Position numbers and translations under genes: made by a program
Notes under the pieces: generated by a model
Seen by the model: only the letters and a program-made list of their open reading frames with translations
Database searches by the model: none
Told to the model about the DNA's origin: nothing
Origin: Elusimicrobiota bacterium
GTDB lineage: Bacteria > Elusimicrobiota > Elusimicrobia > UBA1565 > UBA9628
Reading direction: 5' to 3'
Assembly: GCA_016218545.1 (NCBI GenBank)
Contig: JACRDQ010000030.1
Span: 256,172-320,171 of the forward strand
DNA: 64,000 nt
Shown here: piece by piece, positions 1,322-49,213 of the stretch
How positions within the stretch are numbered: position 1 is the stretch's first letter
Layout of the letters: every line of letters begins with the position of its first letter

Positions 1322-2768
1322 CGAAGACCGAGGCGCCTTCCGCGTCGTCGCGGAAGACCGGGGCTCCCAGGCTGGACTCAGCCCAGGCCCCGATGAGGGC
1401 TCCCATGTCCCTTGCCCCGGCCGGCACGAAGCCTCCGGGCAGGAAGGAGTGCTCCACGTGGATATGGGTGACTCCAGCCTGGCGCGAGGTCTCGACCCAT
1501 TCCCGCGGTCCGGAAGAGCCGAGCGGCGGGGGGAGGCACTGTCGTCCGGTCAGGAGCATCACCGTGTTGAACTTGAGGCTTTCGACGACCGCGTCCGGAG
1601 GGCTGTTGAGGCGGACCCACTCCATGGTCCGGGCCTGATAGGAGGCCGGCCTGGTCAGGGACGCTGACACCAGCCTTGCGTCCTGCCGGAGCGCGGCCAG
1701 GGCCAGGAGTGCCAGCGCGGCCCGGCCCAACCAGGCCTGTGCCGGCCGGTCCGAGGGGGAGAGGGACCCGATCGCGGAGGCCGCGAAGAGCCAGACCAAG
1801 GGCGCGAGGGGGATGACGTAGCGGGAGTCCTCGGGGCTCCAGGTCAAGTGCAGGACCAGGACCAGGACGGTGTAGGCGGCCATGGCGAAGACCAGGGGCG
1901 TCTCCTCCCTGGAGCTCGTCATGAGGCGCCCTGCGCCCCACGCAGCGCAGCTCGCCAGGGCCAGACCCGCGGCCAAGACCAGCCAGCCCGGAGCCTGGGC
2001 GCCGGCCAGCCCGTCTCCGAAGAAGGAGGCGATGACGGCCAGGGCGTGGCTTCCCTGCGCCCCGGGTTCGCCGAGCAGGGCGACTTGGCTGCGCCAGTTC
2101 ACGGCGTATCCGGTCGAGACCCCGGCCGCGAGCTTGTTGCGCAGGAGCCAGAGGCCAAGGGGCGCCAGGCTCGAGAGGAGGAACGCGCCCTGGCGCCTGC
2201 GGCCGGGAGTGGCGAGGGCTCCTGCGGCCAGGGCCAGGCACAGGAGGCCGCCGTGCGGACGGATGAGACCCGCCCAAGCAGCCGCGGCCCACGCGCAGCC
2301 GGTCAGGGCCCAGGAGCCGGACCGGGTCCCCAGGTCCAGGGCCATGAGCGTCAAGGCCAGGTAGGGGATGTCCGGGAGCACGAGCCCGGAGTGGCGCACG
2401 AAGACGGGAGAGAGCGCGGTCAGGCCGGCCGCTGCCAGGGGCCACGGGGCCGGCAGGAGCCTCCAGCCCAGCCGCCAGGTGAAGAAGACGGCCAGGACCA
2501 TGGCGGCCAGCGGCACGCCGCGCAGGAGGCCCCACCGCGGCTCCGCCAGCCAGACCGGGCCCAGGAGCAGCGCCGCGTAGCCTGGCAGCGGGTCGCTGAC
2601 GGGCACGCCCTGGGCGTCGGGAAGGGCGAAGCCTCCGTGCCGCAGGGAGCGGGCGAGCAGGACCTGGACCGAGTCGTCCTCGATGAGCCCCACGGGGTTG
2701 CCTTTCGAGGCCGCGAGATGAAGGCAGAGCAGCGCGGCTGCGGCCGGCAGGATGAGGCGCGTTCTCAC
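1287..2768 (-). CDS. Polytopic membrane protein, putative GT-C-fold glycosyltransferase (ArnT/PMT-like); tandem paralog of 2765..4393
   Basis: Many hydrophobic segments. The N-terminal loop GLIEDDSVQVLLARSLRHGGFALPD...DPLPGYAALLL is collinear with GAFNDDAFFILLSKSLRTGAFALAD...DPLPGFAALLL of the upstream gene, and there is a soluble C-terminal tail. Start placed at GTG 2768 (GTGA overlap with the upstream stop); ATG 2798 is the alternative. Confidence 0.55.
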   Translation of the reverse strand: MRTRLILPAAAALLCLHLAASKGNPVGLIEDDSVQVLLARSLRHGGFALPDAQGVPVSDPLPGYAALLLGPVWLAEPRWGLLRGVPLAAMVLAVFFTWRLGWRLLPAPWPLAAAGLTALSPVFVRHSGLVLPDIPYLALTLMALDLGTRSGSWALTGCAWAAAAWAGLIRPHGGLLCLALAAGALATPGRRRQGAFLLSSLAPLGLWLLRNKLAAGVSTGYAVNWRSQVALLGEPGAQGSHALAVIASFFGDGLAGAQAPGWLVLAAGLALASCAAWGAGRLMTSSREETPLVFAMAAYTVLVLVLHLTWSPEDSRYVIPLAPLVWLFAASAIGSLSPSDRPAQAWLGRAALALLALAALRQDARLVSASLTRPASYQARTMEWVRLNSPPDAVVESLKFNTVMLLTGRQCLPPPLGSSGPREWVETSRQAGVTHIHVEHSFLPGGFVPAGARDMGALIGAWAESSLGAPVFRDDAEGASVFAIPSAGAPRTR

Positions 2769-4393
2769 GGCCCGGGCTCCTCTGCGGAAAGCGCGCACGC
2801 CAGGCTCGGCTCGAGCTCGAGCGCGGCCTTGAGCCTGCGGCGGAGGATCTTGGACGACGCGCCTGAGGCGGGGTCGCGGGCATGGAGGCAGGCCGTGTAG
2901 GCCTCGAAGTAGCGGCCGGGAGCCGGGTGGTGGATGCGGAACACGGCCGTGCCTTCCCTCGGGTTCGCATAGAGCTCGGAGGCATAGGGCGTCTGGCGAG
3001 CCCAGGACTCCAGGGTGGGGAGCTTGAGGTACGGCAGTGAAGGGTAGGCGAACTCTCCGGACAGAAGGCCCCTGGAGACATGCAGGTGGGTGACCCCGCG
3101 CGCCAGGGCGGAGGCGAGCCAGGCGTGCCGGTCGTAGACGGTCAAACCCGGCGGGACCGTGCGCCGTCCCGTGAAGAGCTCCACGGTGTGGAAGGCCAGG
3201 CTCTCCACGCGCGCTTCAGCCGGGAGGTTCTCGGCCAGCCAGGCCATGGTCTCCGGCTCGAAGGCCGGCCGCGGGCCCAGCCCCCTAGCCGCAAAGCCCA
3301 GGTCATGGCGCAGGAGGGCTGCGGAGAAGGCCAGCAGCAGGAGGCCGGCGGCCAGGGGTCTGCGCTCCAGCCAGATCCTCAGTGAGGCCATGATGAGGAT
3401 GACGACGAACGGGAGCAGGGCGATGAGATACCTGGCCTCCTTCAGGGGCCAGGTGGAGTGCATGGCGAGCACGAAGATGACGTAGGTCGCCATGGCCGCG
3501 GCCGGGACGCCTTCGCTGCCCCGCGCCAGGCGCACCGAGCCGTGAGCGACGAGGGCCAGGCATCCCAGCCCGGCCGCGGCGCTCAGGGCCTCCGGGCCCG
3601 TGACCCCGGCCAGGCCCTGGCCGAAGAGCGCGCCCAGGAGCCCAAGGACATGTCCGGCCTGCTGGAGCGGGTCGGCGAACAGGAAGGACTGGGACTTCCA
3701 GTTCGCGACGAAGCCGGTGACCGTGTCTCCTGCGAGGAGGTTGCGGAGCATCCAGCCCGCCAGGGGGAGGAAGGCTCCGGCCAGGAAGGCAAGTCCGCGG
3801 CCCCACCCCAGCCTCAGCCACACGGCCATGCCCAGGCTCAGGCCGAGGATGCTGCCCTGGGGCCTGGTCAGGCACCCTAGAGCGGCGGCCAAGGACAGGG
3901 CCGGCAGGGCCCAAGCAGGACTTCCGGGAGCCAGGGCCGCGGCTCCGAGGAAGAGGGCCAGGGACAGGGCGAGATAGGGGATGTCCGCGATCACGAGCCC
4001 GTCGAGGCCCACCAGCACGGGGTTGAGGGCCACGACTAGGGCCGCGGCCAGGGCCCAGCCCGGGGAGAGGAAGCGCAAGGCCAGGCGCCAGGTCAGCCAG
4101 ACCGAGAGCAGGGCGAAGGCGACGATCATGGGCTGGAGCAGGTGCCAGCGAGGCTCGACCAGCCAGGACGGGATGAGGAGCAGGGCCGCAAACCCCGGCA
4201 GGGGATCGGTCACGGCGGCGCCGTCCGCCAAGGCGAAGGCGCCGGTCCTCAGGGACTTGGAGAGGAGGATGAAGAAGGCGTCGTCGTTGAACGCTCCCAC
4301 GGCGAAGCGCCGGGCCGCGAGCAGGTGGAGGCCTGCCAGGGCCAGGCAGGCAGGCGCCAAGAGCCATGCCATGGGGAACGCTCGTCTCTTCAT
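2765..4393 (-). CDS. Polytopic membrane protein, putative GT-C-fold glycosyltransferase (ArnT/PMT-like)
   Basis: 542-aa ORF with high GC3, many TM segments and a DD-containing first loop. Its soluble C-terminal domain (ETMAWLAENLPAEARVESLAFHTVELFTGRR...) is paralogous to the one in 1287..2768. Confidence 0.55.
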   Translation of the reverse strand: MKRRAFPMAWLLAPACLALAGLHLLAARRFAVGAFNDDAFFILLSKSLRTGAFALADGAAVTDPLPGFAALLLIPSWLVEPRWHLLQPMIVAFALLSVWLTWRLALRFLSPGWALAAALVVALNPVLVGLDGLVIADIPYLALSLALFLGAAALAPGSPAWALPALSLAAALGCLTRPQGSILGLSLGMAVWLRLGWGRGLAFLAGAFLPLAGWMLRNLLAGDTVTGFVANWKSQSFLFADPLQQAGHVLGLLGALFGQGLAGVTGPEALSAAAGLGCLALVAHGSVRLARGSEGVPAAAMATYVIFVLAMHSTWPLKEARYLIALLPFVVILIMASLRIWLERRPLAAGLLLLAFSAALLRHDLGFAARGLGPRPAFEPETMAWLAENLPAEARVESLAFHTVELFTGRRTVPPGLTVYDRHAWLASALARGVTHLHVSRGLLSGEFAYPSLPYLKLPTLESWARQTPYASELYANPREGTAVFRIHHPAPGRYFEAYTACLHARDPASGASSKILRRRLKAALELEPSLACALSAEEPGP

Positions 4394-8064: not shown

Positions 8065-8170
8065 GCGCCGGCGGGCTTCTGCCGTCGACCGCGTCCCTGG
8101 CTTGACCTTTTTTTTACCGCCATCCGGCACACTATGATTGGGGACGGCGGACGTCGCGCCGTACGATGCC

Positions 8171-10285
8171 ATGGAAGAAGACAAGAACAAGAAACTGGCC
8201 TTACGCATCGCCTCGTTGTTGGACGACGTCTCGGAAACGCCGGAGCCCCGGGGCTCCGGCGCTCCGAGCCAGCCGGTCATCTCGCTGAGACCCGCCGTGG
8301 TGGAGGCCCTCCCCGCGGGCGCGGATCTCGGCTCTCCCGCGGTCCAGGCCCCTTCCGAGGTCCTGGCCTCGCCCGAGGTCGGGTCCGCTGTGATGGATAT
8401 CCTGCCCATCTGGGCTGACCCCGACTTTCCTGCGGAGCAGGCCGTGCCCGCGCCGGCCGAAGGGGCCGCGGCCAGCGCGGCCCCCAAGAGGTCCGTGCTG
8501 GTGGTCGACGATGACCGGGACTACCGGCGGATGGTCCGGGCCCTGCTTTCCGGCAACGGCTATGACGTCTACGAGGCCGAGGATGGGCGCCGGGCTCTGC
8601 AGTTGATCGCGCTGCACCGTCCGGACCTGGTGCTCGTGGACTTCAACATGCCGCGGATGAACGGCTACGAGATGATCCAGGAGGTGCGGAGCCGGTTCGA
8701 GACCCGCGCCATTCCGATCATCATGTTCACCGGCGCTTCCAACCGGAGCCACCTGCGGAGCCTGGGCATGGCTATCTCGGATTTCCTGGAGAAGCCGGTG
8801 TCCAATGTCAGGCTGCTGGAGAGCATCTCCAGCGTGCTCGGCGCGGAGCCGTCTCCCGAGCTCATGGGAGCGGAGTCCGCCCCGTCTCCCCGGATCGTTG
8901 CGCCGCCGAAGGCTCCGGAGACGACGCCGTCCCCGAAAGTCGTCGCAGCCGAAACCATGGCTGAGAAGCCTCCGGCGGCGCCGGCGGAGCCCGCTCCGAC
9001 GGGCCTGCCGCCGGAGCCGCTCGAAGAAGGGGACGAGGACGGGACCGAGCTCCTGCAGATCGAGGAGGAGAAGAAGGAGGAGGAGAGGCAGGAGGTCATC
9101 AGCCTCGAGCACCAGGCCAATGAGTCCCCGGTCATCAGCCAGGTGAACCGCATCCTCGTCAAGGCCGTGGGGATGCGCGCCTCCGACATCCACATCGAGC
9201 CTCAGGAGAAGCACATCACGGTCCGCGTGAGGGTCGACGGCACTCTCAAGCTCCTGTGCACCCTGCCCCTCTCCATCCATCCCCGCCTGAGCGCCCGCAT
9301 CAAGATCATGTCCAGCCTGGTCATCACGGAGAGACGCCTTCCCCAGGACGGGCAGTTCAAGACCCAGATCAGGGGCAGCCGGGTCGAGTTCCGGGTGAGC
9401 ACGCTCCCGTGCCTGCACGGCGAGAAGATCGTCATGCGCATCTTGGGCACCAGCAAGCTCAACGCCGATCTGGCCCAGATGAGCCTCCGTCCCCGCGACC
9501 TGGGCTGCGTGGAGAGGGCGCTCAGGACCCCTCACGGCCTCATCCTCGTGACCGGCCCCACCGGGAGCGGCAAGACCACCACCCTCTACACCATGATCAG
9601 CGTCCTCAACAAGCCCGAAGTCAACATCCTGACCGCCGAGGACCCCGTGGAGTACGAGGTGCCGGACATCTCGCAGGTCAAGGTCCTGCCGTCCATCGGC
9701 CTGACCTTCGAGTCCGCTCTGCGGGCCTTCCTGAGGCAGGACCCGGACATCATGCTCATCGGCGAGATCCGCGACCTGGAGACGGCCAACATCGCGGTCA
9801 AGGCCTCTATCACCGGACACCTGGTCTTCTCCACCCTGCATACCAACGGCGCCGTCGCCACCGTGACGAGGCTCGTCCACATGGGGGTGGCGCCCTATCT
9901 CGTCGCGGCCAGCGTCAAGCTCGTGGCGGCCCAGCGCCTGGTCCGGGACCTCTGCCCGTCCTGCAAGGTCCCCGGCGAGGTCTCCGACGACGAGAAGAAG
10001 TTCCTCGCGGAGGAGGAGGTCGCCAGGCTCCGATCCGTCTGGCGGAGCGCGGGGTGTCCCGCCTGCCATCAGACGGGGTACTCGGGGCGCTCGGCCCTCT
10101 TCGAGATCATGCCCCTGGACTCGGCGGCCATGCGCCAGCTCATCTGCGCCGGAGACAAGGCGGAGGAGCTCAACCGTCTGGCCCTTGCGGAGGGCATGAC
10201 CACCCTGCGGCAAGCCGCCTTGGAGGCGGTGGCGCGGGGCACGACCTCGTTGAGCGAGGCGCTCAAGGTCATGCTGGGGGGATGA
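8171..10285 (+). CDS. Response-regulator receiver domain fused to a GspE/PilB-type secretion/pilus ATPase
   Basis: REC domain (VLVVDDDRDYRRMV...DLVLVDFNMPRMNG...PIIMFTG), then a Pro/Glu-rich linker, then the ATPase core. Core motifs: ASDIHIEP, RRLPQDGQF, Walker A GPTGSGKTTT, DPDIMLIGEIRD, TGHLVFSTLHTN, and the tetracysteine CPSC...CPAC. The canonical T2SSE N-domain is absent. Start uncertain: ATG 8171 or TTG 8138. Confidence 0.85.
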   Translation: MEEDKNKKLALRIASLLDDVSETPEPRGSGAPSQPVISLRPAVVEALPAGADLGSPAVQAPSEVLASPEVGSAVMDILPIWADPDFPAEQAVPAPAEGAAASAAPKRSVLVVDDDRDYRRMVRALLSGNGYDVYEAEDGRRALQLIALHRPDLVLVDFNMPRMNGYEMIQEVRSRFETRAIPIIMFTGASNRSHLRSLGMAISDFLEKPVSNVRLLESISSVLGAEPSPELMGAESAPSPRIVAPPKAPETTPSPKVVAAETMAEKPPAAPAEPAPTGLPPEPLEEGDEDGTELLQIEEEKKEEERQEVISLEHQANESPVISQVNRILVKAVGMRASDIHIEPQEKHITVRVRVDGTLKLLCTLPLSIHPRLSARIKIMSSLVITERRLPQDGQFKTQIRGSRVEFRVSTLPCLHGEKIVMRILGTSKLNADLAQMSLRPRDLGCVERALRTPHGLILVTGPTGSGKTTTLYTMISVLNKPEVNILTAEDPVEYEVPDISQVKVLPSIGLTFESALRAFLRQDPDIMLIGEIRDLETANIAVKASITGHLVFSTLHTNGAVATVTRLVHMGVAPYLVAASVKLVAAQRLVRDLCPSCKVPGEVSDDEKKFLAEEEVARLRSVWRSAGCPACHQTGYSGRSALFEIMPLDSAAMRQLICAGDKAEELNRLALAEGMTTLRQAALEAVARGTTSLSEALKVMLGG

Positions 10286-14021: not shown

Positions 14022-15177
14022 ACTTCCGCTGGTTGTAGTCCGCCCGCGTCACCGTGATGAACCTCTTGGTGGTGTCGCCCTTGTGGTCGAAGACGATCGT
14101 CCCCATCATGCTCTCGTGGCGGATCTCCCTGAGGACGTCGAGGAGCGGCTTGCGGCGCTCGAGCGAGACGGCCAGGGCCGAGACGACCAGGCGTCCCGCC
14201 TCGTAGGCGTAGTGGTCGAAGGTCCTCGGCCCGGCGCCGCCCTCGGGGCGCTCCCGCCGGTAGCGCTCGACGAAGTCCCCGGCGCTGGGCAGGTGCTCCA
14301 CCGGGATGCCGCCCACCGTGAAGTACGCTCCGTGGACCGCGGGGCCGGCGATCTTGAAGATCTCGGGGGCCTTGGCGCCGTCGCCGGTCATGAAGGCTGC
14401 GGTCATGCCCTGGCCGCGCGCCTCCTTGACGATGCGCCCGGCCTCGTTGTAGTCCCCGCCGAAGAAGATGCCGTCCGGCTTGAACCGGGAGGCCCACTCG
14501 ACGACTTCCCTGAAATCCGCGGCGCCCTTGGCCACGGCCTCGGCCGCCACCACGCGGCCTCCCTTCTCCGTGAAGCGCTTGGAGAACTCCTCGGACAGGC
14601 CGCGGCCGTAGGCGGTGCCGTCGTGGAGGACCGCGAAGGCCCTGAGGTTGAGGCGGTCGTAGGCGAACTCCGCGGTGAAGGAGCCCTGGATGTCGTCGGC
14701 AGGCGGCAGGCGGAAGACCACGCGGGGCCAGGACCAGTCCGGCTTGGTCTGCTGGACCGTGAGTTCCGGGTTCGTGGCCGAGGGGGTGATCATGGGGATC
14801 CCGGCCTTGGCGTAGACGCGGGAGGCGGCCAAAGAGCAGCCCGAGGTGAGGTGGCCCACCACGGCCTTGACCTTCGGGTCGGCGGCGATGCGCTCCGCCA
14901 CCCGCACGGCCTCCTCGGGCCGGGCCTGGTCGTCGAAGGCGCTGACCTCGATGCGGGTGGGGGGGAACTCGATGGGCTTGGCCTCGGCTGCGGCCATGCG
15001 CACCGCGGCCAGGAGGCCCTCGCCGTCGGCCGCCAATGGGCCGCTCAGGGGTGCTGCCACCGCGATGCGGACCGTCTTGGGCTCCCCGCCGCCGCAGGCC
15101 GCCAGCAGGGCCGCGAGCGCCAGGGCCTTGGCCCAGGCTGGCTGCGGCCGGCCGGCGGGGCGGGGGGGAGGCTTCAT
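13957..15177 (-). CDS. ABC-transporter substrate-binding lipoprotein, Leu/Ile/Val-binding (type I PBP) family
   Basis: Lipoprotein signal with lipobox (LAALLAACGGG). RIAVAAPLSGPLAADGEG, VVGHLTSG and FFGGDY are typical of LivK-like binding proteins. Its start overlaps the upstream stop (ATGA). Confidence 0.8.
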   Translation of the reverse strand: MKPPPRPAGRPQPAWAKALALAALLAACGGGEPKTVRIAVAAPLSGPLAADGEGLLAAVRMAAAEAKPIEFPPTRIEVSAFDDQARPEEAVRVAERIAADPKVKAVVGHLTSGCSLAASRVYAKAGIPMITPSATNPELTVQQTKPDWSWPRVVFRLPPADDIQGSFTAEFAYDRLNLRAFAVLHDGTAYGRGLSEEFSKRFTEKGGRVVAAEAVAKGAADFREVVEWASRFKPDGIFFGGDYNEAGRIVKEARGQGMTAAFMTGDGAKAPEIFKIAGPAVHGAYFTVGGIPVEHLPSAGDFVERYRRERPEGGAGPRTFDHYAYEAGRLVVSALAVSLERRKPLLDVLREIRHESMMGTIVFDHKGDTTKRFITVTRADYNQRKFKSTDPAEASWAAESAAPGSP

Positions 15178-15707
15178 CCCCTCAGGTAGAACCTCAGGTT
15201 CTCGACGAGGTCCACGGCCTTGCCGAGCTGGTACTGGCAGGACTCGAGCTCCTTGGCCAGCGAGTCCTCGGGGAGGCTCGCGCGCGCCTCCTCGGCCAGG
15301 AGTTTCAGCGAGGCCCCGGCGTTGACGAGGAGGCTCTTGAGCTCCCGGGTCATGACCGAGGCCGTCTGGTTGGCCGACTCCTCGCGCCGGGTCTGGTCGA
15401 GCGCGGTGTCGAAGGCCGTCTTCTGGGCCTGGGCCGCGGTCTCCTCGACCTCGGAGACCTTCATCCTGGAGGCGATGAGCGCGGCGTGCTCGCGCTCGAG
15501 GTCCCGGCGGACCTCGACGAGCTGGCTCTCGCAGCGCGCGACCTTGGCCCGGAGCTTGCCGATGAGCGCCTCGCGCTGGCGGATCGGGTCGAGGAGCTTG
15601 CGGATGCGCTCGACCGGGCCGCGGAGCGACTGGGGCAGGCGGCTGGAGAGCTCCTTGAGCGCGGCGTCGGCCCTCTCGAGCGCGGCCTGGCTGAACGCCA
15701 TGTTCAT
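15174..15707 (-). CDS. Coiled-coil hypothetical protein
   Basis: Heptad-rich, Glu/Arg/Leu-rich sequence (MNMAFSQAALERADAALKELSS...). A CATAAT box directly abuts ATG 15707, so the second ATG (15701) may be a leaderless start. Confidence 0.55.
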   Translation of the reverse strand: MNMAFSQAALERADAALKELSSRLPQSLRGPVERIRKLLDPIRQREALIGKLRAKVARCESQLVEVRRDLEREHAALIASRMKVSEVEETAAQAQKTAFDTALDQTRREESANQTASVMTRELKSLLVNAGASLKLLAEEARASLPEDSLAKELESCQYQLGKAVDLVENLRFYLRG

Positions 15708-15839
15708 ATTATGGCAAAAATACCCGGGAAAATGGGGAAAAGCCCGCCGGGTCGGGAAAAACATGATTTCCGTCATTTGAATTAAACGTCCCAAACGGAT
15801 AAAATATGTTTTGCCCTTGAGTTCTTCCGGGGCCTTCCA

Positions 15840-16805
15840 GTGCCGACCCGAACGCAGACGACGACCAGCCTCGAGGCTTCCCTGGGACGGGTGCGCGCAG
15901 GCATGCAAGCCCGCGCCAAGCGCATCTCCGGCCGCGTGGGCTCCGCCCTGGCCGAGCACGTGTCCCGGCCGGGCAAGATGCTCCGGGCGAGGTTCGCGGT
16001 CCAGGTCGGGGCCGCCCTCGGGGTGGCGCCGGGAAAGACCGAGACGGTCGCCCGCGCCATGGAGCTGGCGCACAACGCCTCTCTCCTCCACGACGATTGC
16101 GTCGACGACGCCTCCCTGCGTCGGGGCCTGCCCACGCCCAACAGCGTCTACGGCTCGACCGTGGCGCTCCTCCTGGGGGACATCGCCTTCACCCAGTCGC
16201 TCGAGGAGGCGCTCGAACTCGGCCCCAAGGCCGTGGAGCGCCTCGTGAGCGCGGCGCGCGAGATGGCCATCGGCGAGCTCCAGGAGGAGTTCCTGCGCGG
16301 CTCCGTGGACGTGACCCTCGAGTCCTACATGGGGGTCGCGGCGCGCAAGACCGGGGCCCTCTTCGAGTGGGGCGGCTTGACGCTCTCGGACCTAAGCCCC
16401 CTCGAGCACGCGGCCGCCGACCCCGCCAGGCTGGGCTCGGCGCTCGGCATCCTCCTGCAGATGGTCGACGACATCCACGACTACACCCTGACGGACGCCG
16501 TGGCCGGCAAGGAGCGGGCCAAGGACGCCAAGATCGGGCGCGTGACCCTTCCCGGGGTCTTTGCGCTCGCGGACGCCTCCCGCCGGGGGCGCTTCCTCGA
16601 GTTGTGGGCCGCGCTGCGCCGGGACCCGCGCGCCGCCTCGGACCTGGCGCGCTTCCTCGACGAGAGCGGGTCGCTCGACGAGGCCCGCGCCGAGTGCCGC
16701 AAGGTGGTCGGGACCATCCTCGAGCTGACCCGGCGCCTGCCGGTCCGGGGAGAGGTCGACGAGGTGGCCGAGTTCGTCTCGGCCATGGCCGAGAGGGAAT
16801 TCTGA
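15840..16805 (+). CDS. Long-chain trans-polyprenyl diphosphate synthase (IspB-like)
   Basis: First Asp-rich motif LLHDDCVDD...RRG and second motif QMVDDIHDY. The distances of RPGKMLRA and DDxxD from GTG 15840 match full-length IspB-type enzymes. Confidence 0.85.
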   Translation: MPTRTQTTTSLEASLGRVRAGMQARAKRISGRVGSALAEHVSRPGKMLRARFAVQVGAALGVAPGKTETVARAMELAHNASLLHDDCVDDASLRRGLPTPNSVYGSTVALLLGDIAFTQSLEEALELGPKAVERLVSAAREMAIGELQEEFLRGSVDVTLESYMGVAARKTGALFEWGGLTLSDLSPLEHAAADPARLGSALGILLQMVDDIHDYTLTDAVAGKERAKDAKIGRVTLPGVFALADASRRGRFLELWAALRRDPRAASDLARFLDESGSLDEARAECRKVVGTILELTRRLPVRGEVDEVAEFVSAMAEREF

Positions 16806-17254
16806 TGGGCTACGCCGACCTCATCCGGCGGGCCTGGCGGACCGGGCGCTTCGCCGCCTCGGTCCGGTCGTCCGGGAAGAAGGGCGCCGCGGGCGTCCGT
16901 CCCGGGGAGAGCCGCGGCTCCATCCGCGGCGAGATGGAAGAGATCGTCCGCCGCGAGTCCGCCGACGCGCTCGGCTTCCTCGCGCCGCGCGGGGAGGGAA
17001 TCATGAAGCTCGCACCGTTCGTGAAATTCCGTGAAGAGAAGTTCGGCGCGGTCCTGTTCGAGACCCGTTCCGAGAAGGTGTTCACCCTCAATCCGACGGC
17101 CGCGGACGTGGTGCGGGAGCTCCTCGCCGGCGCCTCGGAGGGCGAGATCGGAGAGCGCCTCAAGGGCCGCTACAGCGACCCCTCGGGCAGGCTCGCCGAC
17201 GAGGCCAAGGCCCTCGTGCGCCAGCTCCGCGACAAGGGGCTCATCGCGGACTAG
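16805..17254 (+). CDS. PqqD/MftB-like peptide-binding chaperone (RRE domain) with ~66-aa N-terminal extension
   Basis: The C-terminal 83 aa (MKLAPFVKFREEKFGAVLFETRSEKVFTLNPTAADVVRELLAG..EGEIGERLKGRY..........ALVRQLRDKGLI) fit the PqqD pattern. The upstream 66 codons have very high GC3, and ATG 16805 overlaps the ispB-like stop (ATGA). ATG 17004 is the alternative start. Confidence 0.7.
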   Translation: MGYADLIRRAWRTGRFAASVRSSGKKGAAGVRPGESRGSIRGEMEEIVRRESADALGFLAPRGEGIMKLAPFVKFREEKFGAVLFETRSEKVFTLNPTAADVVRELLAGASEGEIGERLKGRYSDPSGRLADEAKALVRQLRDKGLIAD

Positions 17255-17255
17255 C

Positions 17256-18254
17256 ATGGCTTCGAGGAAGGACGCGGTCAAGGCCGGAGGCCGGGCGTCC
17301 CGGGCGCCCTTGGAAGAGGCGTTGGCGCCCGGGATGCGGGCGCCGCTCTACATCGGCTGGCAGCTGACCAATGCCTGCGACCTGGCGTGCGTCCACTGCA
17401 TCGAGGAGTCCGGGCCGGGCCGCGCCTTCAAGGACGAGCTGACCCGGGAGCAGGCCTTCCGTATCCTCGAGCAGATCAAGACCGAGCAGGTGCCCTACGT
17501 CGCCTTCTCCGGGGGCGAGCCCTTCCTCCACCCGCACTTCCTGGAACTGGCCGCGTTCCTCGGAGACGCCGGGGTGTCGCTCAAGGTCGAGACCAACGGC
17601 CGCCACCTCACCGAGGCGGCCGCCTCGGCGCTGCGGGACCACGGAGTCCGGGCCGTGCAGGTCAGCCTCGACGGCGCCACCCCCGAGGCCTACCGCAAGG
17701 TGCGGCCCTCCGGCGACCACGCCCGGGTCCTGGCAGGCATCCGCCTCCTGCGCTCCAGGGGCGTGGAGGTGGAGGTCAACTTCGTCCCGACGCGGCACAA
17801 CGTCCATGAGATCGGAGCCGCCGTGGACCTGGCCTTCAGCGAGGGGGTCTCCGGCTTCTACACGGGCAGGCTCATCCTGGCCGGCCACGCCGCCAAGGCG
17901 CGGGACCTGGCCCCGACCCAGGAGCAGTACGACGCCTTCTTCGCGTGCCTCAAGGCCAAGGCCCAGGAGTACAAGGGCCGCATGACCGTGCGCTATCACG
18001 AGCTGGGCATCGCGCAGGAGGTCCGCTACCGCATGGCCAACCCCGCGGCCCTCTTCGTCATCCTGCCCGACGGCAGGGTGAAGCTCCTCAACGCCCTGCC
18101 GTTCGTGTGCGGCGACCTGCGCGAGCAGAGCCTCACCGAGGTCTGGAAGGCCTTCCTCGCGGGCTGGAAGTCGCCGCGGGTGGCCGACTTCGTCGGCCGC
18201 CTGGAGGCCGACCCCGGGCTCCTGCAAGGACTGCACCGATGGATCCCTTTGTGA
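17256..18254 (+). CDS. Radical SAM enzyme A, PqqE/MftC-like, degenerate (Cys-less) SPASM-like C-terminus
   Basis: CxxxCxxC cluster motif in WQLTNACDLACVHCIEESGPG, SAM-binding FSGGEP, and KVETNG. C-terminal remnant ILPDGRVKLLNALPFVCGDLREQSLTEVW. Only 2 Cys lie outside the cluster motif. Confidence 0.8.
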   Translation: MASRKDAVKAGGRASRAPLEEALAPGMRAPLYIGWQLTNACDLACVHCIEESGPGRAFKDELTREQAFRILEQIKTEQVPYVAFSGGEPFLHPHFLELAAFLGDAGVSLKVETNGRHLTEAAASALRDHGVRAVQVSLDGATPEAYRKVRPSGDHARVLAGIRLLRSRGVEVEVNFVPTRHNVHEIGAAVDLAFSEGVSGFYTGRLILAGHAAKARDLAPTQEQYDAFFACLKAKAQEYKGRMTVRYHELGIAQEVRYRMANPAALFVILPDGRVKLLNALPFVCGDLREQSLTEVWKAFLAGWKSPRVADFVGRLEADPGLLQGLHRWIPL

Positions 18255-19198
18255 CCGAGTCCGGCGTGGAGACCGACGGCCGCGCCGCTCCGGCCCGCGG
18301 CGGCGGGAGCGGGCGGCCGAATCTGGCCCTGCGGATGGCGTCTGCGGTGCGCTACCGCTTCTTCCTGTACGCGGGACTCCTCCCGTACTTCCTCGGCGCG
18401 GCCTGGGCCCTGCGCATGGAGGGAGCCTTCGCGCCCGGCCGCTTCTGGCTGGGCCTGCTGGGCATCGGCCTGTCCGTCGTGGGTGTTGAGTCCTTCAACG
18501 AGTACTTCGACGCGCGCATGGGCACGGACCGCGTCTTCAACCCTTCCGACGACGAGTACATCCCCGCCTGGATGCTCTGGCTGGGGGTCGCGGCGTTCGC
18601 GGCCGCGGCGTGCGTGGGCATGGCCCTGGCCCATGCCGGAGGCTGGCCCATCCTCCTCTACATGGGGCTGGGCGGCATGGCCGCGGCCTTCTACGTGGGC
18701 CCGCCTTTCCGCTGGGCCTACCTGGGCCTCGGCGAGACCTCGATCGCCTTGTCCTACGGGCCCTGGATGACCCTGGGCAGCATCCACCTGCACACGGGCG
18801 CTTTCTCCTGGCGCGGCCTGGCGGCCGCGCTCGTGCCCGGCTTGCTGGTGGCGTCGCTCGCCGTGGTCAACGAGATCCCGGATTTCCACCAGGACCGGCT
18901 CGTGGGCAAGCGCAACCTCGTGGTGCGGCTGGGCCGCAGGAACGGGGTCGCCCTGTACCTCGCCCTGGCCGGGGCGGGCTTGGCCGCGTGCTTCGCAGGC
19001 GCGGCCGCGGGCTGGTTCCCGGTCGCGTGCGGCCTGGCCGGGGCCCTGGGCCTGCCGTGCTGGTTCTCGAGCGCTCGGACCGCGGTCAAGGCGTGGGACA
19101 CGCCGCGGCTTTTCGTGCCCGCGGTGCGGGACATCGTGCAGTGCTATCTCGTGACCGTGAGCGCCTTCATCATGGCGCTCGCCGTGAGGCTGCCGTGA
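18239..19198 (+). CDS. UbiA-superfamily aromatic prenyltransferase, MenA-like
   Basis: Polytopic membrane protein. First motif NEYFDARMGTD (NxxxDxxxGxD) and second motif NEIPDFHQDRLVGKRNLVVRLG (NxxxDxxxDxxxGKxxLxVRLG) have the same spacing as in MenA. ATG 18239 overlaps rSAM A by 16 nt. Confidence 0.75.
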   Translation: MDPFVTESGVETDGRAAPARGGGSGRPNLALRMASAVRYRFFLYAGLLPYFLGAAWALRMEGAFAPGRFWLGLLGIGLSVVGVESFNEYFDARMGTDRVFNPSDDEYIPAWMLWLGVAAFAAAACVGMALAHAGGWPILLYMGLGGMAAAFYVGPPFRWAYLGLGETSIALSYGPWMTLGSIHLHTGAFSWRGLAAALVPGLLVASLAVVNEIPDFHQDRLVGKRNLVVRLGRRNGVALYLALAGAGLAACFAGAAAGWFPVACGLAGALGLPCWFSSARTAVKAWDTPRLFVPAVRDIVQCYLVTVSAFIMALAVRLP

Positions 19199-20109
19199 GG
19201 ATCGCGTCCTTCGACGTTCCCCTGGCCGCTGCCTGGCGCCTGACCGACCGGTGCGACCTCTCCTGCCGGCACTGCCTCAACGCTTCCGGGCCCAAGGCTG
19301 ACACGGCCGCCGAGCTCTCCCGGCCCGAGGCTCTCAAGCTGGCCCGGAGCATCGGCTCAGCCCAGGTCCCCTACGTCATCCTCTGCGGGGGCGAGCCCAT
19401 GCTGAGCCCCGACTTCTGGCAGGCGGCCGAGACCCTGGGCGAGGCAGGCGCGTGGCTCAAGGTGGAGACGCACGGCCAGAACCTCGGGCGCACCCAGGCG
19501 GAGCGCCTGGCCAAGCTCCCCATCCGCTCGGTCCAGGTCTCTCTCGACGGGGTCACCCAGCAGGCTTACGAGTCCCTGCGGCCAGGGGCCTCCCTGGCCA
19601 AGACCTTGGAAGCTTGCCGCGAGGTGCGGCGTCAAGGCATGCCCCTCGAGATCTCCTTCGTCCCGGTCCAGGGCAACATCCACGAGGCTCCGGCGGTCAT
19701 CGACCTGGCCCTGGACCTGGGCGCCTTCCGGTTCAACACCGGGACCCTCATCAAGCGCGGCCGCGCCGCAGCCGCTTGGAAGAAGCTCCTTCCTGATGCC
19801 GAGTCCATGGCAGGCTTGCTCGCGGTCCTCACCCGTCGCGAAGCCACCCTGGCCGGGAGGCTCGAGCTCTGCTTCAGGCCTTTCAATTTCGAAGACCAGG
19901 TCCGCGCCGAACGCGCGGAGCCCTCAGGCACGCTCACGATCCTGCCTGACGGCAAGGTCCCTGTCTCGGCCTCCTCGGACGTCGTCTGCGCCGACCTTCG
20001 GACGCAGACGGTCAGGGAGGCCTGGCGCGCTTACTTGGCGGCGCACGGCAAGGGGCCACGATCGGAAAGATGGGTCGGCTCGTGTCTTGAGCCGGCTACC
20101 CGGTCCTAG
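19195..20109 (+). CDS. Radical SAM enzyme B, paralog of A and C
   Basis: WRLTDRCDLSCRHCLNASGP, CGGEP, KVETHG, ILPDGKVPV...VVCADLRTQTVREAW. GTG 19195 overlaps the prenyltransferase stop (GTGA). Confidence 0.75.
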   Translation: MRIASFDVPLAAAWRLTDRCDLSCRHCLNASGPKADTAAELSRPEALKLARSIGSAQVPYVILCGGEPMLSPDFWQAAETLGEAGAWLKVETHGQNLGRTQAERLAKLPIRSVQVSLDGVTQQAYESLRPGASLAKTLEACREVRRQGMPLEISFVPVQGNIHEAPAVIDLALDLGAFRFNTGTLIKRGRAAAAWKKLLPDAESMAGLLAVLTRREATLAGRLELCFRPFNFEDQVRAERAEPSGTLTILPDGKVPVSASSDVVCADLRTQTVREAWRAYLAAHGKGPRSERWVGSCLEPATRS

Positions 20110-20129
20110 GCCGGGATTTAGGAGACAGC

Positions 20130-20255
20130 ATGAGAGACAAGAAGAACGTGACGGATGGAAAGGCGAAGGCCGACAAGAAGCCCGTGTGGCAGACCCCTTC
20201 TCTCGAAGAGGTCACCGAGCGTGTCATGGCCCAGCCGTACATCAGGTTCACGTGA
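20130..20255 (+). CDS. 41-aa candidate precursor peptide, PqqA/MftA-like (MRDKKNVTDGKAKADKKPVWQTPSLEEVTERVMAQPYIRFT)
   Basis: Not in the ORF track because it is too short. A GGAGA Shine-Dalgarno lies 4 nt upstream of ATG 20130. About 82% GC3. Stop TGA 20253-20255 overlaps the GTG start of rSAM C (GTGA). It sits between rSAM genes and downstream of a PqqD-like gene. The W-x2-P-x3-E-V...Y-I-x3 spacing matches PqqA as I recall it. Confidence 0.6.
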   Translation: MRDKKNVTDGKAKADKKPVWQTPSLEEVTERVMAQPYIRFT

Positions 20256-21226
20256 CGCACCCGAGGGGGGCGGCGGTAGGAGACTACCGCGCCCCCCTCT
20301 TTGTCGCGTGGCAACTCACCAACCGCTGCCGCGGCCGCTGCCTGGCCTGCTGCGAGGAATCCGGTCCGGGCAAGGGAATCCGCCAAGGCGGGTCCTGGCA
20401 GGCTGAGCTCACCAAGCAGGAAGCCCTCCGCGTCAGCCGCGACATCGCGGCCTCCGGGGTCTCCTACGTGGCGTTCGGCGGGGGGGAACCCATGGAGGTG
20501 CCGCACTTCTGGGACATCCTCTCCATCCTCTCCAAGGGCGGGGTCCGCATCAAGATCGAGACCAACGGCGGGACCATCGGCCGCTCCCAGGCCAAGCGCC
20601 TCTCCGCCTTGGGCGTGTCCTCCATCCAGATCAGCCTCGACGGCCCCACGGCCCGCGAGCACGAGGCCTTGAGGCCCGGCTCGAGCTTCAACAAAGCGGT
20701 CCGGGCGGTCCGCTGTCTGGCTGAGGAAGGGCTCGGGCCTGAGGTCGTGTTCATCCCCATGAAGAGGAACGTGGGCCAGGCCGTCAAGGTCTACCGATTG
20801 GCGGCCAGTCTCGGAGCCAGGGTGCTTGCGACCGGCCCTCTCATGCGCCTGGGACGCGCCGGAGCAGCATGGAAGGAACTCGCCCCGTCGGCCGGGCGAT
20901 GGCGGACCGCGGTCCGGGCGCTCAAGGCCGAGGCCGCCCGTGCCAAGGCAGGGCCCAAGCTCTCCATCTATCCCTGGGGCATCCAGAGGGAGATCGAGAC
21001 CAGGCTCGAGCATCCCCAGGCCATGGTCCTCGTGGTGCCTGACGGCAAGGTCAAGCTCCTCAATGCCCTCCCTTTTGCTCCAGGCGACCTGCGGCGACAC
21101 TCCCTGGCCCAGGCCTGGACGCGCTGCCTCGGAGCTTGGCGCGACCCCAAGGTGCGGGCTTTCTGCCGCAAGGCCGTGAAGGACCCCGGGCTCCTGGCGC
21201 ACGCCAACGAATGCTGGCCCGCCTAA
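20252..21226 (+). CDS. Radical SAM enzyme C, paralog of A and B
   Basis: WQLTNRCRGRCLACCEESGPG, FGGGEP, KIETNG, VVPDGKVKLLNALPFAPGDLRRHSLAQAW. There is no in-frame ATG upstream of the motif, so the start is placed at GTG 20252. Confidence 0.75.
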   Translation: MTHPRGAAVGDYRAPLFVAWQLTNRCRGRCLACCEESGPGKGIRQGGSWQAELTKQEALRVSRDIAASGVSYVAFGGGEPMEVPHFWDILSILSKGGVRIKIETNGGTIGRSQAKRLSALGVSSIQISLDGPTAREHEALRPGSSFNKAVRAVRCLAEEGLGPEVVFIPMKRNVGQAVKVYRLAASLGARVLATGPLMRLGRAGAAWKELAPSAGRWRTAVRALKAEAARAKAGPKLSIYPWGIQREIETRLEHPQAMVLVVPDGKVKLLNALPFAPGDLRRHSLAQAWTRCLGAWRDPKVRAFCRKAVKDPGLLAHANECWPA

Positions 21227-22286
21227 TCCAAGCAGGCTGAGAAGAGCGCGGGGAGCTCGCCGAGCCTGCCCGCCTCGGCGAGCTTGCCCAGGTCGAAGAG
21301 GATGAGGCCTCCGGAGCCTCCCTGCCAGGCGGCGTCGGCGGCGGCCCTGAGCTCGCCGGGTCCGAGGGGATGCTCCGCGTCTCCCACGAAGATGATGGGC
21401 CAGACCGGCTTGCCCGAATCGGCCTTGACGGCCATGGAGGCGTCCGTGATCCAGGACGCGGGCCTGCGCAGGAGCGCGTGGTACGCCATGGGCGAGACCA
21501 CGTCCGCTGCCCTGCCCATGAGGCGGTGGTCCTGGCCGAGGATCTCGAGGACGGCCCCGCGCTTCTCCGAGCGCTCCCAGGGCACGGCGAAGTAGCCCAC
21601 CAGGGCCGCGGGGTCGGCCGCGTGGACCGCGTCTGCGACCTCGCTGACGAGGCCCGCGATGCTCGCGGTCTTGAACGCGGTCCAGCGCTCCTTGTGGTCC
21701 GACAGGATCCAGCGCGCCTTCTCCCTGGCCGTGAGCTCCTCCGGGACCGCGACCCCGGTTTCCTTGCGGAACTCCCTCAGGCACACCGGGCAGAAGCAGG
21801 TCTGCTCGAGATGGGGCTCGGGGACCTCCCAGTGGCCGGGATAGCGGATGAAGTCGAGCCACACGCCGTCGACTTCCTGCTTGCGCACCAGGGACACGGC
21901 GCGCTTCTTGATGTCCAGCCTGAGCCAAGTCTGGTTGGGGCAGACGGCGGCGTACCACTTGACCTTGGCGAGGGGTTCGCCGACCTCGCTGACCGGCCTG
22001 CTCTCGGGCCGCGTCTTCCAATGACGCTCTCCCGCGAAGGCTGTGAGCTCCGCGAACACGCGGATGCCACGGCCGCGCAGGGCCTTGCGGAGGAGCGGGT
22101 CCTTGTAGCCGCCGAAGACCGCGTTCACGCCCCAGGAGGAGAGGGCCTCGGCGATCCGCTCCGGGGTCTTGCCCTTGAAGGCCGCGGACTTGGGGTCGAA
22201 GCCGTAGACCCCGCACACCGGTCCGGCGTCAGCGGCAAGAGCGGGCTGGACCGCGAGGATGAGGCCGGCGAGGATGAGGAGGAGCA

Positions 22287-34010: not shown

Positions 34011-34754
34011 ATGTTCCAGAGCACGTCGTCCGTCCTCATCATCCTCGTGGTCGCGGCGTTCCTGTCCATCAAGCTGGTCAATGAGTACGACCGGGTGGTG
34101 GTCTTCGTCCTGGGCCGGCTCTGGAAGGTCTGCGGCCCCGGGCCCATCATCGTGGTGCCCGGCATCATGCGCGGCCAGCTGGTGAGCCTCCGGACCGTGG
34201 TCCTCGACGTGCCCCCGCAGGACGTCATCACCAAGGACAACGTCTCCATCAAGGTCAACGCCGTCGTCTATCTGCGGGTGGTGGACGCGCAGCGGGCGGT
34301 CATCCAGGTGGAGAACTACCTCTATGCCACGAGCCAGTGGGCGCAGACGACCCTGCGCTCGATCCTGGGCAAGTCCGAGGTCGACGAGATCCTGGCGCAC
34401 CGCGACAAGATCAACAACGAGCTCCAGCAGATCCTCGACGCCCACACCGAGCCGTGGGGCGTGAAGGTCTCCAACGTCGAGATCAAGAACGTGGACTTCG
34501 CGCAGGAGATGCTGCGCGCCATGGCCAAGCAGGCCGAGGCCGAGCGCGAGCGCCGCGCCAAGGTCATCCACGCGGAAGGCGAGCTCCAGGCCTCCGAGAA
34601 GCTGGGACAGGCCGCCAAGGTCCTGTCGGCCGACCCGGCCTCCATCCAGCTCCGGTACCTGCAGACGCTCTCTGAGATCGCGATCGACAAGAACTCCACC
34701 ACCATCTTCCCGGTGCCGGTGGACGTGATCTCGATGTTCGTCAAGAAGACTTGA
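34011..34754 (+). CDS. SPFH / Band-7 (stomatin-like) membrane protein
   Basis: N-terminal TM ([13 protein letters not shown]), then [15 protein letters not shown]...DVITKDNV...RSILG and a coiled coil [22 protein letters not shown] lies 9 nt upstream of ATG 34011; ATG 33975 is the alternative. Confidence 0.85.
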
Positions 34755-49192: not shown

Positions 49193-49198
49193 AGCATT

Positions 49199-49207
49199 TG
49201 ATATGAT
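49199..49207 (+). promoter_or_regulatory. Candidate extended -10 (TGATATGAT) 6 nt upstream of ATG 49214; leaderless candidate
   Basis: The sequence reads catTTGATATGATggtcggATG, in a 21-nt intergenic gap. Confidence 0.35.
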
Positions 49208-49213
49208 GGTCGG

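Follow-up and report, generated by a model that had tools for sequence, protein, structure and literature searches.

A conserved gene cassette linking a small peptide and radical-SAM enzymes to a menaquinone-type prenyltransferase

What could a set of peptide-maturation genes make together with a prenyltransferase of the menaquinone type? The question is raised by seven forward-strand genes at positions 15840-21226 of a 64,000-nucleotide stretch of DNA from an Elusimicrobiota bacterium (contig JACRDQ010000030.1; the whole stretch is called the window below). In order, they encode a polyprenyl diphosphate synthase, a PqqD-family protein, the radical S-adenosylmethionine (radical-SAM) enzyme A, a MenA-like prenyltransferase, radical-SAM enzyme B, a short peptide, and radical-SAM enzyme C. 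Few cofactors are known to be carved from ribosomal peptides, and, to our knowledge, the head groups of the known respiratory lipoquinones all come from chorismate or related small-molecule routes. The conserved module described here joins a PqqA-like peptide, a chaperone, and radical-SAM enzymes to a menaquinone-type polyprenyltransferase, and would represent a new biosynthetic logic for a membrane-bound molecule. On balance, we lean towards the reading that the genes serve one pathway, the product of which is a prenylated, membrane-bound, cofactor-like derivative of the peptide.

The cassette contains the elements by which clusters for ribosomally synthesized, post-translationally modified peptides, or RiPPs, are generally defined: a precursor with a leader, a RiPP recognition element (RRE), and at least one modifying enzyme. 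It is a PqqD/radical-SAM peptide-maturation system with an unprecedented UbiA-type polyprenylation partner. Judged from the sequences, its first step would resemble that of pyrroloquinoline quinone (PQQ) and mycofactocin synthesis and its last the MenA step, and the cassette proteins fall outside the signatures that define all three. The original prediction knew of no characterized pathway with this gene set, and that view holds: no cassette product reaches a curated NCBIfam cut-off, and full-text literature searches for the gene combination, the peptide motif, and UbiA-linked RiPPs returned nothing relevant. An apparent literature match, the second copies of pqqAED in Hyphomicrobium, is a different cluster (PMC12423496). 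As predicted, the tailoring genes of the two known pathways were not found, PqqB and PqqC in the cassette and its flanks (in the window and in loci L001-L004 and L205-L210) and MftD, MftE, and MftF in the cassette.

Conservation and organization of the cassette

The precursor peptide is 41 residues long, MRDKKNVTDGKAKADKKPVWQTPSLEEVTERVMAQPYIRFT, and is encoded on the forward strand at 20130..20255, where a Shine-Dalgarno site and its conservation mark the gene. Pfam and NCBIfam scans assigned it to no family, even at E = 10, and gave no PqqA match in Pfam. The micro-ORF had been proposed as a peptide gene, and the peptide is present in all 76 syntenic loci that cover its site. Among 79 loci found through the cassette proteins, the last 33 nucleotides of the gene occur in 50 DNA versions, all of which encode VMAQPYIRFT followed by a stop codon; loci found through the peptide itself were left out of this comparison. 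Because the core varies only at synonymous sites, selection acts on the amino-acid sequence, and the micro-ORF is a genuine gene under purifying selection. The stretch has a G+C content of about 70%, at which long spurious ORFs are common. Chance adjacency or spurious ORFs in such GC-rich DNA are ruled out by the synteny together with the synonymous-site pattern.

A scan of genomes, with one genome per species, identified 250 species with a close relative. The best 80 loci were mapped by tblastn with the seven window proteins, and independent gene calls agree with the map. They belong mostly to metagenome-assembled genomes (MAGs) of Elusimicrobiota, together with about 12 MAGs of Pseudomonadota, the hosts of which include Casimicrobiaceae, Steroidobacteraceae, and unclassified beta- and gammaproteobacteria. 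The order PqqD-rSAM A-MenA-rSAM B-peptide-rSAM C, in which rSAM stands for radical-SAM, is kept in every one of the 80 loci that extends far enough, and in this three-enzyme form the rSAM C gene always lies directly 3' of the peptide gene. The match to rSAM C is interrupted in two loci. In L013 (9968-12543), an insert of about 1.5 kb splits it immediately 3' of the peptide gene, and in L080 (10076-11013) it is spread over three frames. Each break may reflect an insertion, a pseudogene, or faulty assembly.

A scan of metagenomes with a pattern back-translated from the peptide core found at least 120 contigs from soil, rhizosphere, peat, sediment, and groundwater. The MenA-like gene is present on 54 of these contigs, and the others end too early to contain it, except for two with orphan peptide genes (L126 and L161). 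A second, compact arrangement consists of the peptide, a PqqD protein of 83-85 residues, one radical-SAM enzyme of 338 residues, and the MenA-like enzyme, often followed by the synthase, on low-GC contigs. It occurs in L155 (587-3974), L205 (9741-12943), L159, L162, L163, and L204, metagenome contigs with a GC fraction of 0.38-0.49, and homologs of its radical-SAM enzyme are annotated in MAGs of Planctomycetota, Phycisphaerales, and Sedimentisphaerales. Three more contexts bear out the compact form, one with the synthase (L205) and two in which no synthase was found (L206 and L207).

The same set of four genes (peptide, PqqD, one radical-SAM enzyme, and MenA-like enzyme), here headed by a 30-residue peptide, is found on soil contigs with a GC fraction of 0.53 (L208, 3213-5491; L209, 5433-7711; L210, 4801-7079). 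Its neighbors are PaREP1, a TrmBL2-like regulator, a fragment best matching archaeal ATP synthase subunit A, and a MutS2-like gene, and a TATA-like box lies about 27 nucleotides before the peptide ATG. Judged from these neighboring gene families, the three contigs are probably archaeal. Peptides with the ending of this type, IVLRPYIRFT, are encoded on at least 97 contigs.

The cassette is thus present in at least three bacterial phyla (Elusimicrobiota, Pseudomonadota, and Planctomycetota) and probably in archaea. Its constant core is formed by the peptide, the PqqD protein, one to three radical-SAM enzymes, and the MenA-like transferase, while the synthase is an accessory recruited on either side. 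The MenA-like gene is co-conserved, as predicted: wherever a locus spans the set, the gene is there, in both gene orders and across several phyla. The radical-SAM triplet, by contrast, is conserved in Elusimicrobiota and Proteobacteria and is not essential elsewhere, as a single enzyme takes its place in Planctomycetota and in the archaeal-type loci. In the loci examined, the cassette has no conserved companion gene for a transporter, an immunity protein, a protease, a hydroxylase, or a methyltransferase.

Within the window, Pfam, NCBIfam (release of June 2026), and direct reading of 15840-21226 confirm the seven predicted forward-strand ORFs, their coordinates, and their domains. The junctions are tight. 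The last base of the synthase TGA (16803-16805) is also the first of the ATG at 16805; translational coupling is retained here, and the sequence is TGATG instead of the ATGA that had been read. A single nucleotide separates the next two genes at 17255. The overlap of 16 nucleotides at 18239-18254 holds if the ATG at 18239 is the start codon of the transferase, and a MenA start that coincides with the preceding stop codon is seen in homologous loci as well. GTGA junctions are present at 19195 and 20252, and AGGAG precedes the peptide ATG at 20130 by 7 nucleotides. A promoter-like site, TTGAAT-17 nt-TAAAAT (15777..15805, forward strand), which is a match to the sigma-70 consensus only, sits in the sole AT-rich gap, about 35 nucleotides 5' of the first gene. 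It is the single sigma-70-like match within 15100-21700, where shuffled sequence yields a mean of 0.2, and none was found inside the seven-gene block. Since the only such site is upstream, the junctions are tight, and the next downstream gene is convergent, the block looks like a single operon. Two terminator-like hairpins within it are at chance level. An Rfam search of 15000-21700 returned no family above threshold; a raiA-hairpin RNA candidate inside the end of rSAM C (21069-21141, reverse strand) scores 26.6 bits against a gathering threshold of 43.7 (E = 0.15) and is most likely due to chance.

The peptide and its candidate maturation proteins

A profile search of 1.84 billion representative proteins gave 98 matches to the peptide (clusters at 50% identity), about 94 of which are small peptides of 30-78 residues. 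In these peptides, a variable, lysine-rich N-terminus leads into W-x-x-P-x-[LMI]-E-[DE]-V-[ST]-x-x-[VI]-M-A-Q-P-Y-I-R-F-T. The truly invariant parts are the W..P leader motif, the acidic pair, and the terminal P-[Y/F]-I-R-F-T; 81 of the 98 representatives end in [VI]MAQPYIRFT. Read by eye, the tryptophan is followed by the proline at a distance of 3 residues, an acidic residue at 7, and the tyrosine at 17, a W-x2-P-x3-[DE]-x9-Y spacing identical to that of PqqA. When 30 peptides were compared by hhalign with six PqqA sequences, only WxxPxxxE/D aligned, over 10 columns (probability 8%, P = 0.004). Homology to PqqA is therefore suggestive, a lead and not a result.

The residue four positions before the tyrosine, which is glutamate in PqqA, is methionine in the window peptide and never glutamate across the 94 peptide representatives. 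Methionine is replaced by threonine on five contigs, one of them 232 kb long, and by isoleucine in other variants, and VMAQ becomes IVLR in the archaeal-type peptides. The PqqA-like spacing had suggested a specific methionine-tyrosine cross-link mimicking the glutamate-tyrosine pair of PqqA, an idea weakened by the occurrence of threonine, isoleucine, or valine at the first of these positions in variants that are well supported. Four representatives, each from one contig, have phenylalanine instead of tyrosine and end in MAQPFIRFT (P0327, P0341, P0342, and P0344). Three of the four have the upstream motif KPEL.[DN]VTG in common, which suggests that they form a true sub-family. Of the original proposal of a ribosomally derived aromatic head group, the strict dependence on tyrosine is weakened by these peptides.

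Some peptide genes are solitary. Those of L161 (about 1100-1220), L126 (954-1070), and L116 have no PqqD, radical-SAM, or MenA gene within 1-5 kb. By eye, the gene of L161 lies between an unrelated gene for 376 residues and one for 192 residues resembling CDP-alcohol phosphatidyltransferase, and that of L126 is followed by a short ORF, perhaps a fragment of an insertion element. The solitary genes may be extra precursor copies or decayed loci.

The PqqD-family protein (149 residues; 16805..17254, forward strand; Pfam PF05402, E = 3e-11) is predicted from this match to be a peptide chaperone or RRE. The PF05402 match scores 43.8 bits against a cut-off of 23.4 and covers residues 83-148 and positions 2-67 of the 67 in the profile. 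All NCBIfam scores are below their cut-offs: 47 of 70 bits for the lasso-type PqqD, 23 of 33 for MftB (TIGR03967), and 19.4 of 46 for PqqD (TIGR03859). An N-terminal extension of about 65 residues is confined to Elusimicrobiota, and the protein is only 83-105 residues long in the proteobacterial, planctomycete, and archaeal-type loci. In the family alignment, 29 positions are at least 95% conserved, all of them from M67 on.

The radical-SAM enzymes A (332 residues; 17256..18254; E = 5e-26 for Pfam Radical_SAM), B (304 residues; 19195..20109; E = 1.8e-19), and C (324 residues; 20252..21226; E = 3.6e-21) are all encoded on the forward strand. They contain the cluster motifs CDLACVHC, CDLSCRHC, and CRGRCLACC, respectively, and each has a GGEP motif. 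Their place in the radical-SAM superfamily is established by PF04055 scores of 71-92 bits against a cut-off of 29.5, and by CX3CX2C and GGE motifs that are invariant in 61-76 orthologs per paralog. In the same ortholog alignments, A and B each have a single further conserved C-terminal cysteine (C285 and C265, respectively), whereas C has none there but a conserved cysteine adjacent to its CX3CX2C motif. The paralogs are 35-39% identical (A and B 39%, B and C 35%), against 44-73% within the ortholog groups across phyla, and so go back to an old triplication.

The enzymes had been likened to PqqE and MftC, which belong to the SPASM/twitch kind. Enzymes of that kind bind one or two auxiliary clusters through C-terminal cysteines, seven in the SPASM motif and three to four in the twitch domain. 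This part of the comparison fails, as none of the cassette enzymes keeps the cysteines of the auxiliary clusters. No Pfam SPASM match was obtained for A, B, or C at E <= 0.01, and the single planctomycete enzyme has only a remnant match (E = 0.031). The top NCBIfam match of all three paralogs is the mycofactocin maturase TIGR03962, at 128, 99, and 108 bits for A, B, and C against a cut-off of 265. The models of AhbD, NirJ, TIGR04053, and PqqE follow closely, all below cut-off; PqqE (TIGR02109) scores 83, 87, and 54 bits against 381. An AlphaFold2 model of rSAM A (predicted local distance difference test score 87.5) keeps the fold of the first part of the C-terminal domain, which starts with a β-hairpin. 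Its nearest solved folds are SkfB (9e-18), PqqE (1e-15), and SuiB (1e-13); viperin, MoaA, and BlsE rank behind them, and a sequence search agrees with this ranking in placing RiPP maturases closest. Given these folds and NCBIfam scores that are all far below cut-off, the enzymes are not orthologs of a characterized non-peptide pathway, in line with the prediction. No MqnA-E or MenB-F model is among their best 25 NCBIfam matches, and no such gene was found in the flanks examined.

These comparisons bear on the idea that the radical-SAM enzymes act on a substrate other than a peptide, either a tetrapyrrole, as AhbC, AhbD, and NirJ do, or an isoprenoid or quinone. The UbiA-type enzyme would then resemble haem O or chlorophyll synthase, and the small ORF would encode a scaffold or an accessory subunit, or serve as a leader in regulation. 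The scores of AhbD (120 bits), NirJ (113), and NirJ2 (107) near the 128 bits of the mycofactocin maturase speak for it, as do weak matches of chlorophyll synthase models to the transferase and the lack of SPASM clusters, in which the enzymes are unlike typical peptide cross-linkers. We nevertheless regard this explanation as highly improbable. The PqqD domain is never missing, the small ORF combines a leader of PqqA-like spacing with an invariant C-terminus under selection at the amino-acid level, and the transferase groups with MenA and UBIAD1, not with CyoE/CtaB or ChlG. Moreover, no tetrapyrrole gene is conserved beside the cassette; the CobA/HemD-like gene of L205 lies beyond an Nqr-like operon.

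Among systems that do act on peptides, PQQ synthesis shares with the cassette a small conserved peptide, a stand-alone PqqD, a PqqE-like radical-SAM enzyme (PqqE is the second-best fold for rSAM A), and conservation of the kind seen for a cofactor. The cassette differs in the lack of the glutamate before the tyrosine and of both auxiliary iron-sulfur (Fe-S) clusters, and in having a MenA-type prenyltransferase in place of the PQQ tailoring enzymes. Mycofactocin is a redox cofactor made from the C-terminus of a peptide by an RRE and one radical-SAM enzyme. There too, the small peptide is conserved, MftC is the top match of the three paralogs, and a transferase decorates the product, the glycosyltransferase MftF in mycofactocin and presumably the prenyltransferase here. 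However, the cassette peptide ends in PYIRFT and not in GVY, its aromatic residue is not C-terminal, and the SPASM cysteines are missing. The SkfB, SuiB, and triceptide enzymes have a similar radical-SAM core and start of the C-terminal domain and depend on an RRE for leader recognition, as the cassette enzymes would, but they have twitch/SPASM clusters, products with variable cores, and no link to a UbiA-type enzyme.

The prenyltransferase, its genomic context, and the candidate product

The prenyltransferase is a UbiA-family enzyme of the MenA/UBIAD1 type (319 residues; 18239..19198, forward strand; Pfam UbiA, E = 3e-15), with a PF01040 score of 56.6 bits against a cut-off of 34.2. It is the best-conserved protein of the cassette, with 58-82% identity. 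Two motifs, NEYFDARMGTD and NEIPDFHQDRLVGKRN, show no variation among 79 orthologs; the residues N87-E-Y-F-D91-x5-D97 and D215-x3-D219 provide the Asp-rich motifs by which UbiA enzymes are recognized. The best NCBIfam models are those of 1,4-dihydroxy-2-naphthoate (DHNA) polyprenyltransferases, none of which reaches its cut-off (NF004751, 102 bits against 264; TIGR00751, 63 against 102), and human UBIAD1 (8djk) is the sole sequence match in the PDB (E = 1.6e-5). Since the transferase always lies within the peptide, PqqD, and radical-SAM set, its aromatic substrate is probably not 1,4-dihydroxy-2-naphthoate.

The cassette enzyme has in common with the MenA/UBIAD1 step the MenA-type motifs N-[DE]-Y-x-D-x3-G-x-D and D-x3-D-x3-G-K, the pairing with a long-chain polyprenyl diphosphate synthase in many loci, and quinone-dependent complexes adjoining it in some phyla. 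It differs in its scores, in never lying beside men or mqn genes, none of which is adjacent in any flank examined, and in being embedded in a peptide set. These features must be weighed in judging whether the transferase makes an ordinary or altered menaquinone-type lipid from a chorismate-derived head group, while the peptide, PqqD, and radical-SAM proteins make a separate soluble product or a cofactor that this lipid pathway needs, the two parts being linked by co-regulation. The closeness to DHNA polyprenyltransferases and UBIAD1 and the intact MenA-type Asp-rich motifs agree with this explanation, and groundwater Elusimicrobia, which encode quinone-dependent complexes (10.1101/765248; the source is silent on quinone biosynthesis), need some quinone. 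We consider it quite unlikely. The transferase is far below the MenA cut-offs, and its gene is interleaved and translationally coupled with radical-SAM genes, in a link to the peptide set that survives two rearrangements across phyla. The proteobacterial hosts, in addition, would normally use ubiquinone made with a UbiA of their own.

The synthase is a trans-polyprenyl diphosphate synthase of the IspB-like type (321 residues; 15840..16805, forward strand; Pfam polyprenyl_synt, E = 2e-40; PF00348, 139 bits against a cut-off of 27). Its best NCBIfam models are encapsulin-cargo, solanesyl-, heptaprenyl-, and octaprenyl diphosphate synthases, all below cut-off. Both DDxxD motifs are present (DDCVD and DDIHD), and by eye alanine and serine occupy positions -5 and -4 before the first. 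According to the published chain-length rule, small residues before the first DDxxD motif go with a long-chain product, and the rule indicates that the synthase would make a long polyprenyl chain. The domain was thus predicted correctly, and the synthase is accessory, not a fixed member of the cassette. The gene lies 5' of PqqD in most Elusimicrobiota loci and 3' of MenA in some Planctomycetota loci. No synthase was found within 8 kb in the proteobacterial loci or in the Elusimicrobiota loci L063 and L066, and none in the archaeal-type loci.

The surroundings of the cassette differ among lineages. In Elusimicrobiota, the flanks are unrelated to it and encode signaling proteins, a periplasmic binding protein, PurH, and LigA, or elsewhere caspase-like peptidases or PPK2; Pfam annotation of the window flanks gave no quinone or respiratory gene. 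In five loci of Planctomycetota, the cassette lies directly 3' of a six-gene Nqr/Rnf-like operon for an RnfC-like Fe-S subunit, NQR2/RnfD, an FMN_bind protein, two Rnf-Nqr membrane subunits, and an NqrF-like 2Fe-2S/FAD/NAD subunit. The operon is itself an unusual hybrid, as its A subunit has RnfC-like Fe-S motifs and its last is NqrF-like. In L205, the cassette is followed by NrfD, 4Fe-4S, and molybdopterin oxidoreductase genes. In the proteobacterial loci L059 (242-6745 and 10904-15210), L081, L082, and L084, one side is occupied by a NapC/NirT (CymA-like) tetrahaem cytochrome and MtrC/MtrA/MtrB-like proteins. The other side encodes FdhE and formate dehydrogenase in two loci, with an in-frame stop typical of selenocysteine in the formate dehydrogenase gene, and a NiFe hydrogenase and a CCG/Fe-S protein in two. 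The neighbors in Planctomycetota and Proteobacteria exchange electrons with the membrane quinone pool, an association, not a proof, that favors a redox cofactor.

The nature of the peptide points in the same direction. RiPP antibiotics usually have variable cores, and the cassette core is invariant across phyla. This invariance, the lack of conserved export and immunity genes, the housekeeping surroundings, and the occurrence in about 250 species argue for a cofactor-like and not an antibiotic-like product, which is most likely a redox molecule. More tentatively, the product could be a quinone-like electron carrier, which would join PQQ and mycofactocin as the third redox cofactor derived from a ribosomal peptide and would be the first of them with a polyprenyl chain and a place in the membrane. 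Such a carrier might, if the idea is correct, serve Nqr-like pumps, NrfD-type oxidoreductases, CymA/Mtr systems, formate dehydrogenase, and hydrogenase. Equally conjecturally, it would operate in Elusimicrobiota of groundwater and soil, in anaerobic Planctomycetota, in some Proteobacteria, and probably in archaea of soil. That the product defines a new class is a substantial possibility, and a redox-active product would change the models of electron transport in Elusimicrobiota and other uncultured lineages, the genomes of which encode quinone-dependent complexes.

By analogy with PqqD and PqqA, the PqqD protein would bind the W-x-x-P-x-x-x-E/D leader and present the C-terminus of the peptide to the radical-SAM enzyme or enzymes. 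As in PqqE, SkfB, and SuiB, these would abstract a hydrogen atom and modify the P-Y-I-R-F-T end, most plausibly by a carbon-carbon cross-link to the aromatic ring. The interchange of tyrosine and phenylalanine fits chemistry on the ring better than phenol chemistry. Without auxiliary clusters, the electron bookkeeping of the reaction must differ from that of PqqE. The work is probably divided among three specialized paralogs in Elusimicrobiota and Proteobacteria and done by one enzyme in the other lineages, and a protease encoded elsewhere may trim the peptide. The MenA-type enzyme would then alkylate an aromatic carbon of the modified product with a long polyprenyl chain, which the adjacent IspB-like synthase or a housekeeping synthase may provide, and so anchor it in the membrane. 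Since no protease, hydroxylase, or methyltransferase is conserved, the product presumably stays a modified peptide or fragment, or is completed by enzymes of general function. The succession of steps, the residue that is modified, the acceptor of the prenyl chain, and a role in redox chemistry are all inferred.

Several observations weigh against a redox cofactor formed in this way. Respiratory neighbors are found in only two of the four lineages, and the flanks in Elusimicrobiota and the archaeal-type loci are unrelated. According to published surveys, Planctomycetes and Thaumarchaeota usually have the futalosine pathway and gut Elusimicrobia have none (PMC3914697). The cassette is thus not needed as the sole quinone route in the first two groups, and the notion that it is the only quinone pathway of its hosts is unsupported for them. 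PqqE, MftC, and SuiB rely for oxidative cross-linking on auxiliary clusters that the radical-SAM enzymes of the cassette lack, and the position corresponding to the PqqA glutamate tolerates several residues. The phenylalanine of four peptide representatives makes the phenol hydroxyl dispensable in places. With no conserved hydroxylase, methyltransferase, or protease, a true para-quinone would need enzymes from elsewhere; the lack of quinone-forming tailoring genes and the phenylalanine variants argue against a classical para-quinone. Orphan peptide genes (L126 and L161) occur without enzymes nearby, and the prenyl chain might go to a molecule that does not derive from the peptide.

Part of this evidence would suit a polyprenylated RiPP without a redox role, which might be an antimicrobial, a structural peptide, or a signal that is secreted or anchored in the membrane. 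In such a RiPP, the peptide would stay largely intact and the MenA-like enzyme would lipidate the tyrosine or phenylalanine ring, comparable to the modification of ComX. A precursor, an RRE, and a radical-SAM maturase are hallmarks of RiPPs, and the lack of a conserved protease is as expected for a product that remains a peptide. The entire P-[Y/F]-I-R-F-T, not just one or two residues, is invariant. Cyclophane precursors show tyrosine-phenylalanine interchange at their aromatic-x-x motif, and the cassette core has Y-I-R; the interchange suits the carbon-carbon chemistry of such a three-residue cyclophane better than a quinone head group. On the other hand, signals and antibiotics diversify, while the core is invariant across phyla and probably domains, and an exporter or immunity gene is conserved nowhere in the cassette. 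The synthase motifs imply a long chain of the lipoquinone type, not the C5-C15 of known prenylated peptides. We also know of no UbiA-type enzyme that accepts peptides, and the literature search found no RiPP made with one. For these reasons, we consider a lipidated RiPP unlikely; if it is the product nonetheless, the use of a UbiA-type enzyme would be without precedent among RiPPs. The ComX/ComQ system itself resembles the cassette in the addition of an isoprenoid to an aromatic residue of a ribosomal peptide and in a gene of the polyprenyl-synthase family beside the precursor. There, however, ComQ is itself the transferase and adds C10 or C15 to tryptophan, there is no radical-SAM, PqqD, or UbiA-type enzyme, and ComX is hypervariable and exported, in contrast to the invariant cassette peptide. 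Whether the product is a redox cofactor or a lipidated peptide, the minimal planctomycete and archaeal-type sets of four to five genes are small enough for direct heterologous testing.

Other genes of the window

Just upstream of the cassette region, a forward-strand gene at 8138-10285 encodes a T2SSE-type secretion ATPase with a fused N-terminal response-regulator receiver, followed by genes for a TPR protein and a PAS histidine kinase; the module appears to be a signaling-controlled secretion or pilus ATPase. Two reverse-strand ORFs at 1287-2798 and 2765-4393 encode 503 and 542 residues, respectively, with coding-type G+C content at third codon positions and signal-peptide-like N-termini; neither matches Pfam at E <= 1e-5. 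The forward strand also has, at 34751-35857, a fourth radical-SAM gene that is not related to the cassette; by eye, the N-terminus of its product is HemN/HemW-like, and a large gene overlaps its stop codon. At 45726-53259, four co-directional forward-strand genes encode an adenylate/guanylate cyclase, two TPR proteins, and a TPR-Ser/Thr protein kinase, and are followed by a Peptidase_S10-like gene and an MltA-like gene.

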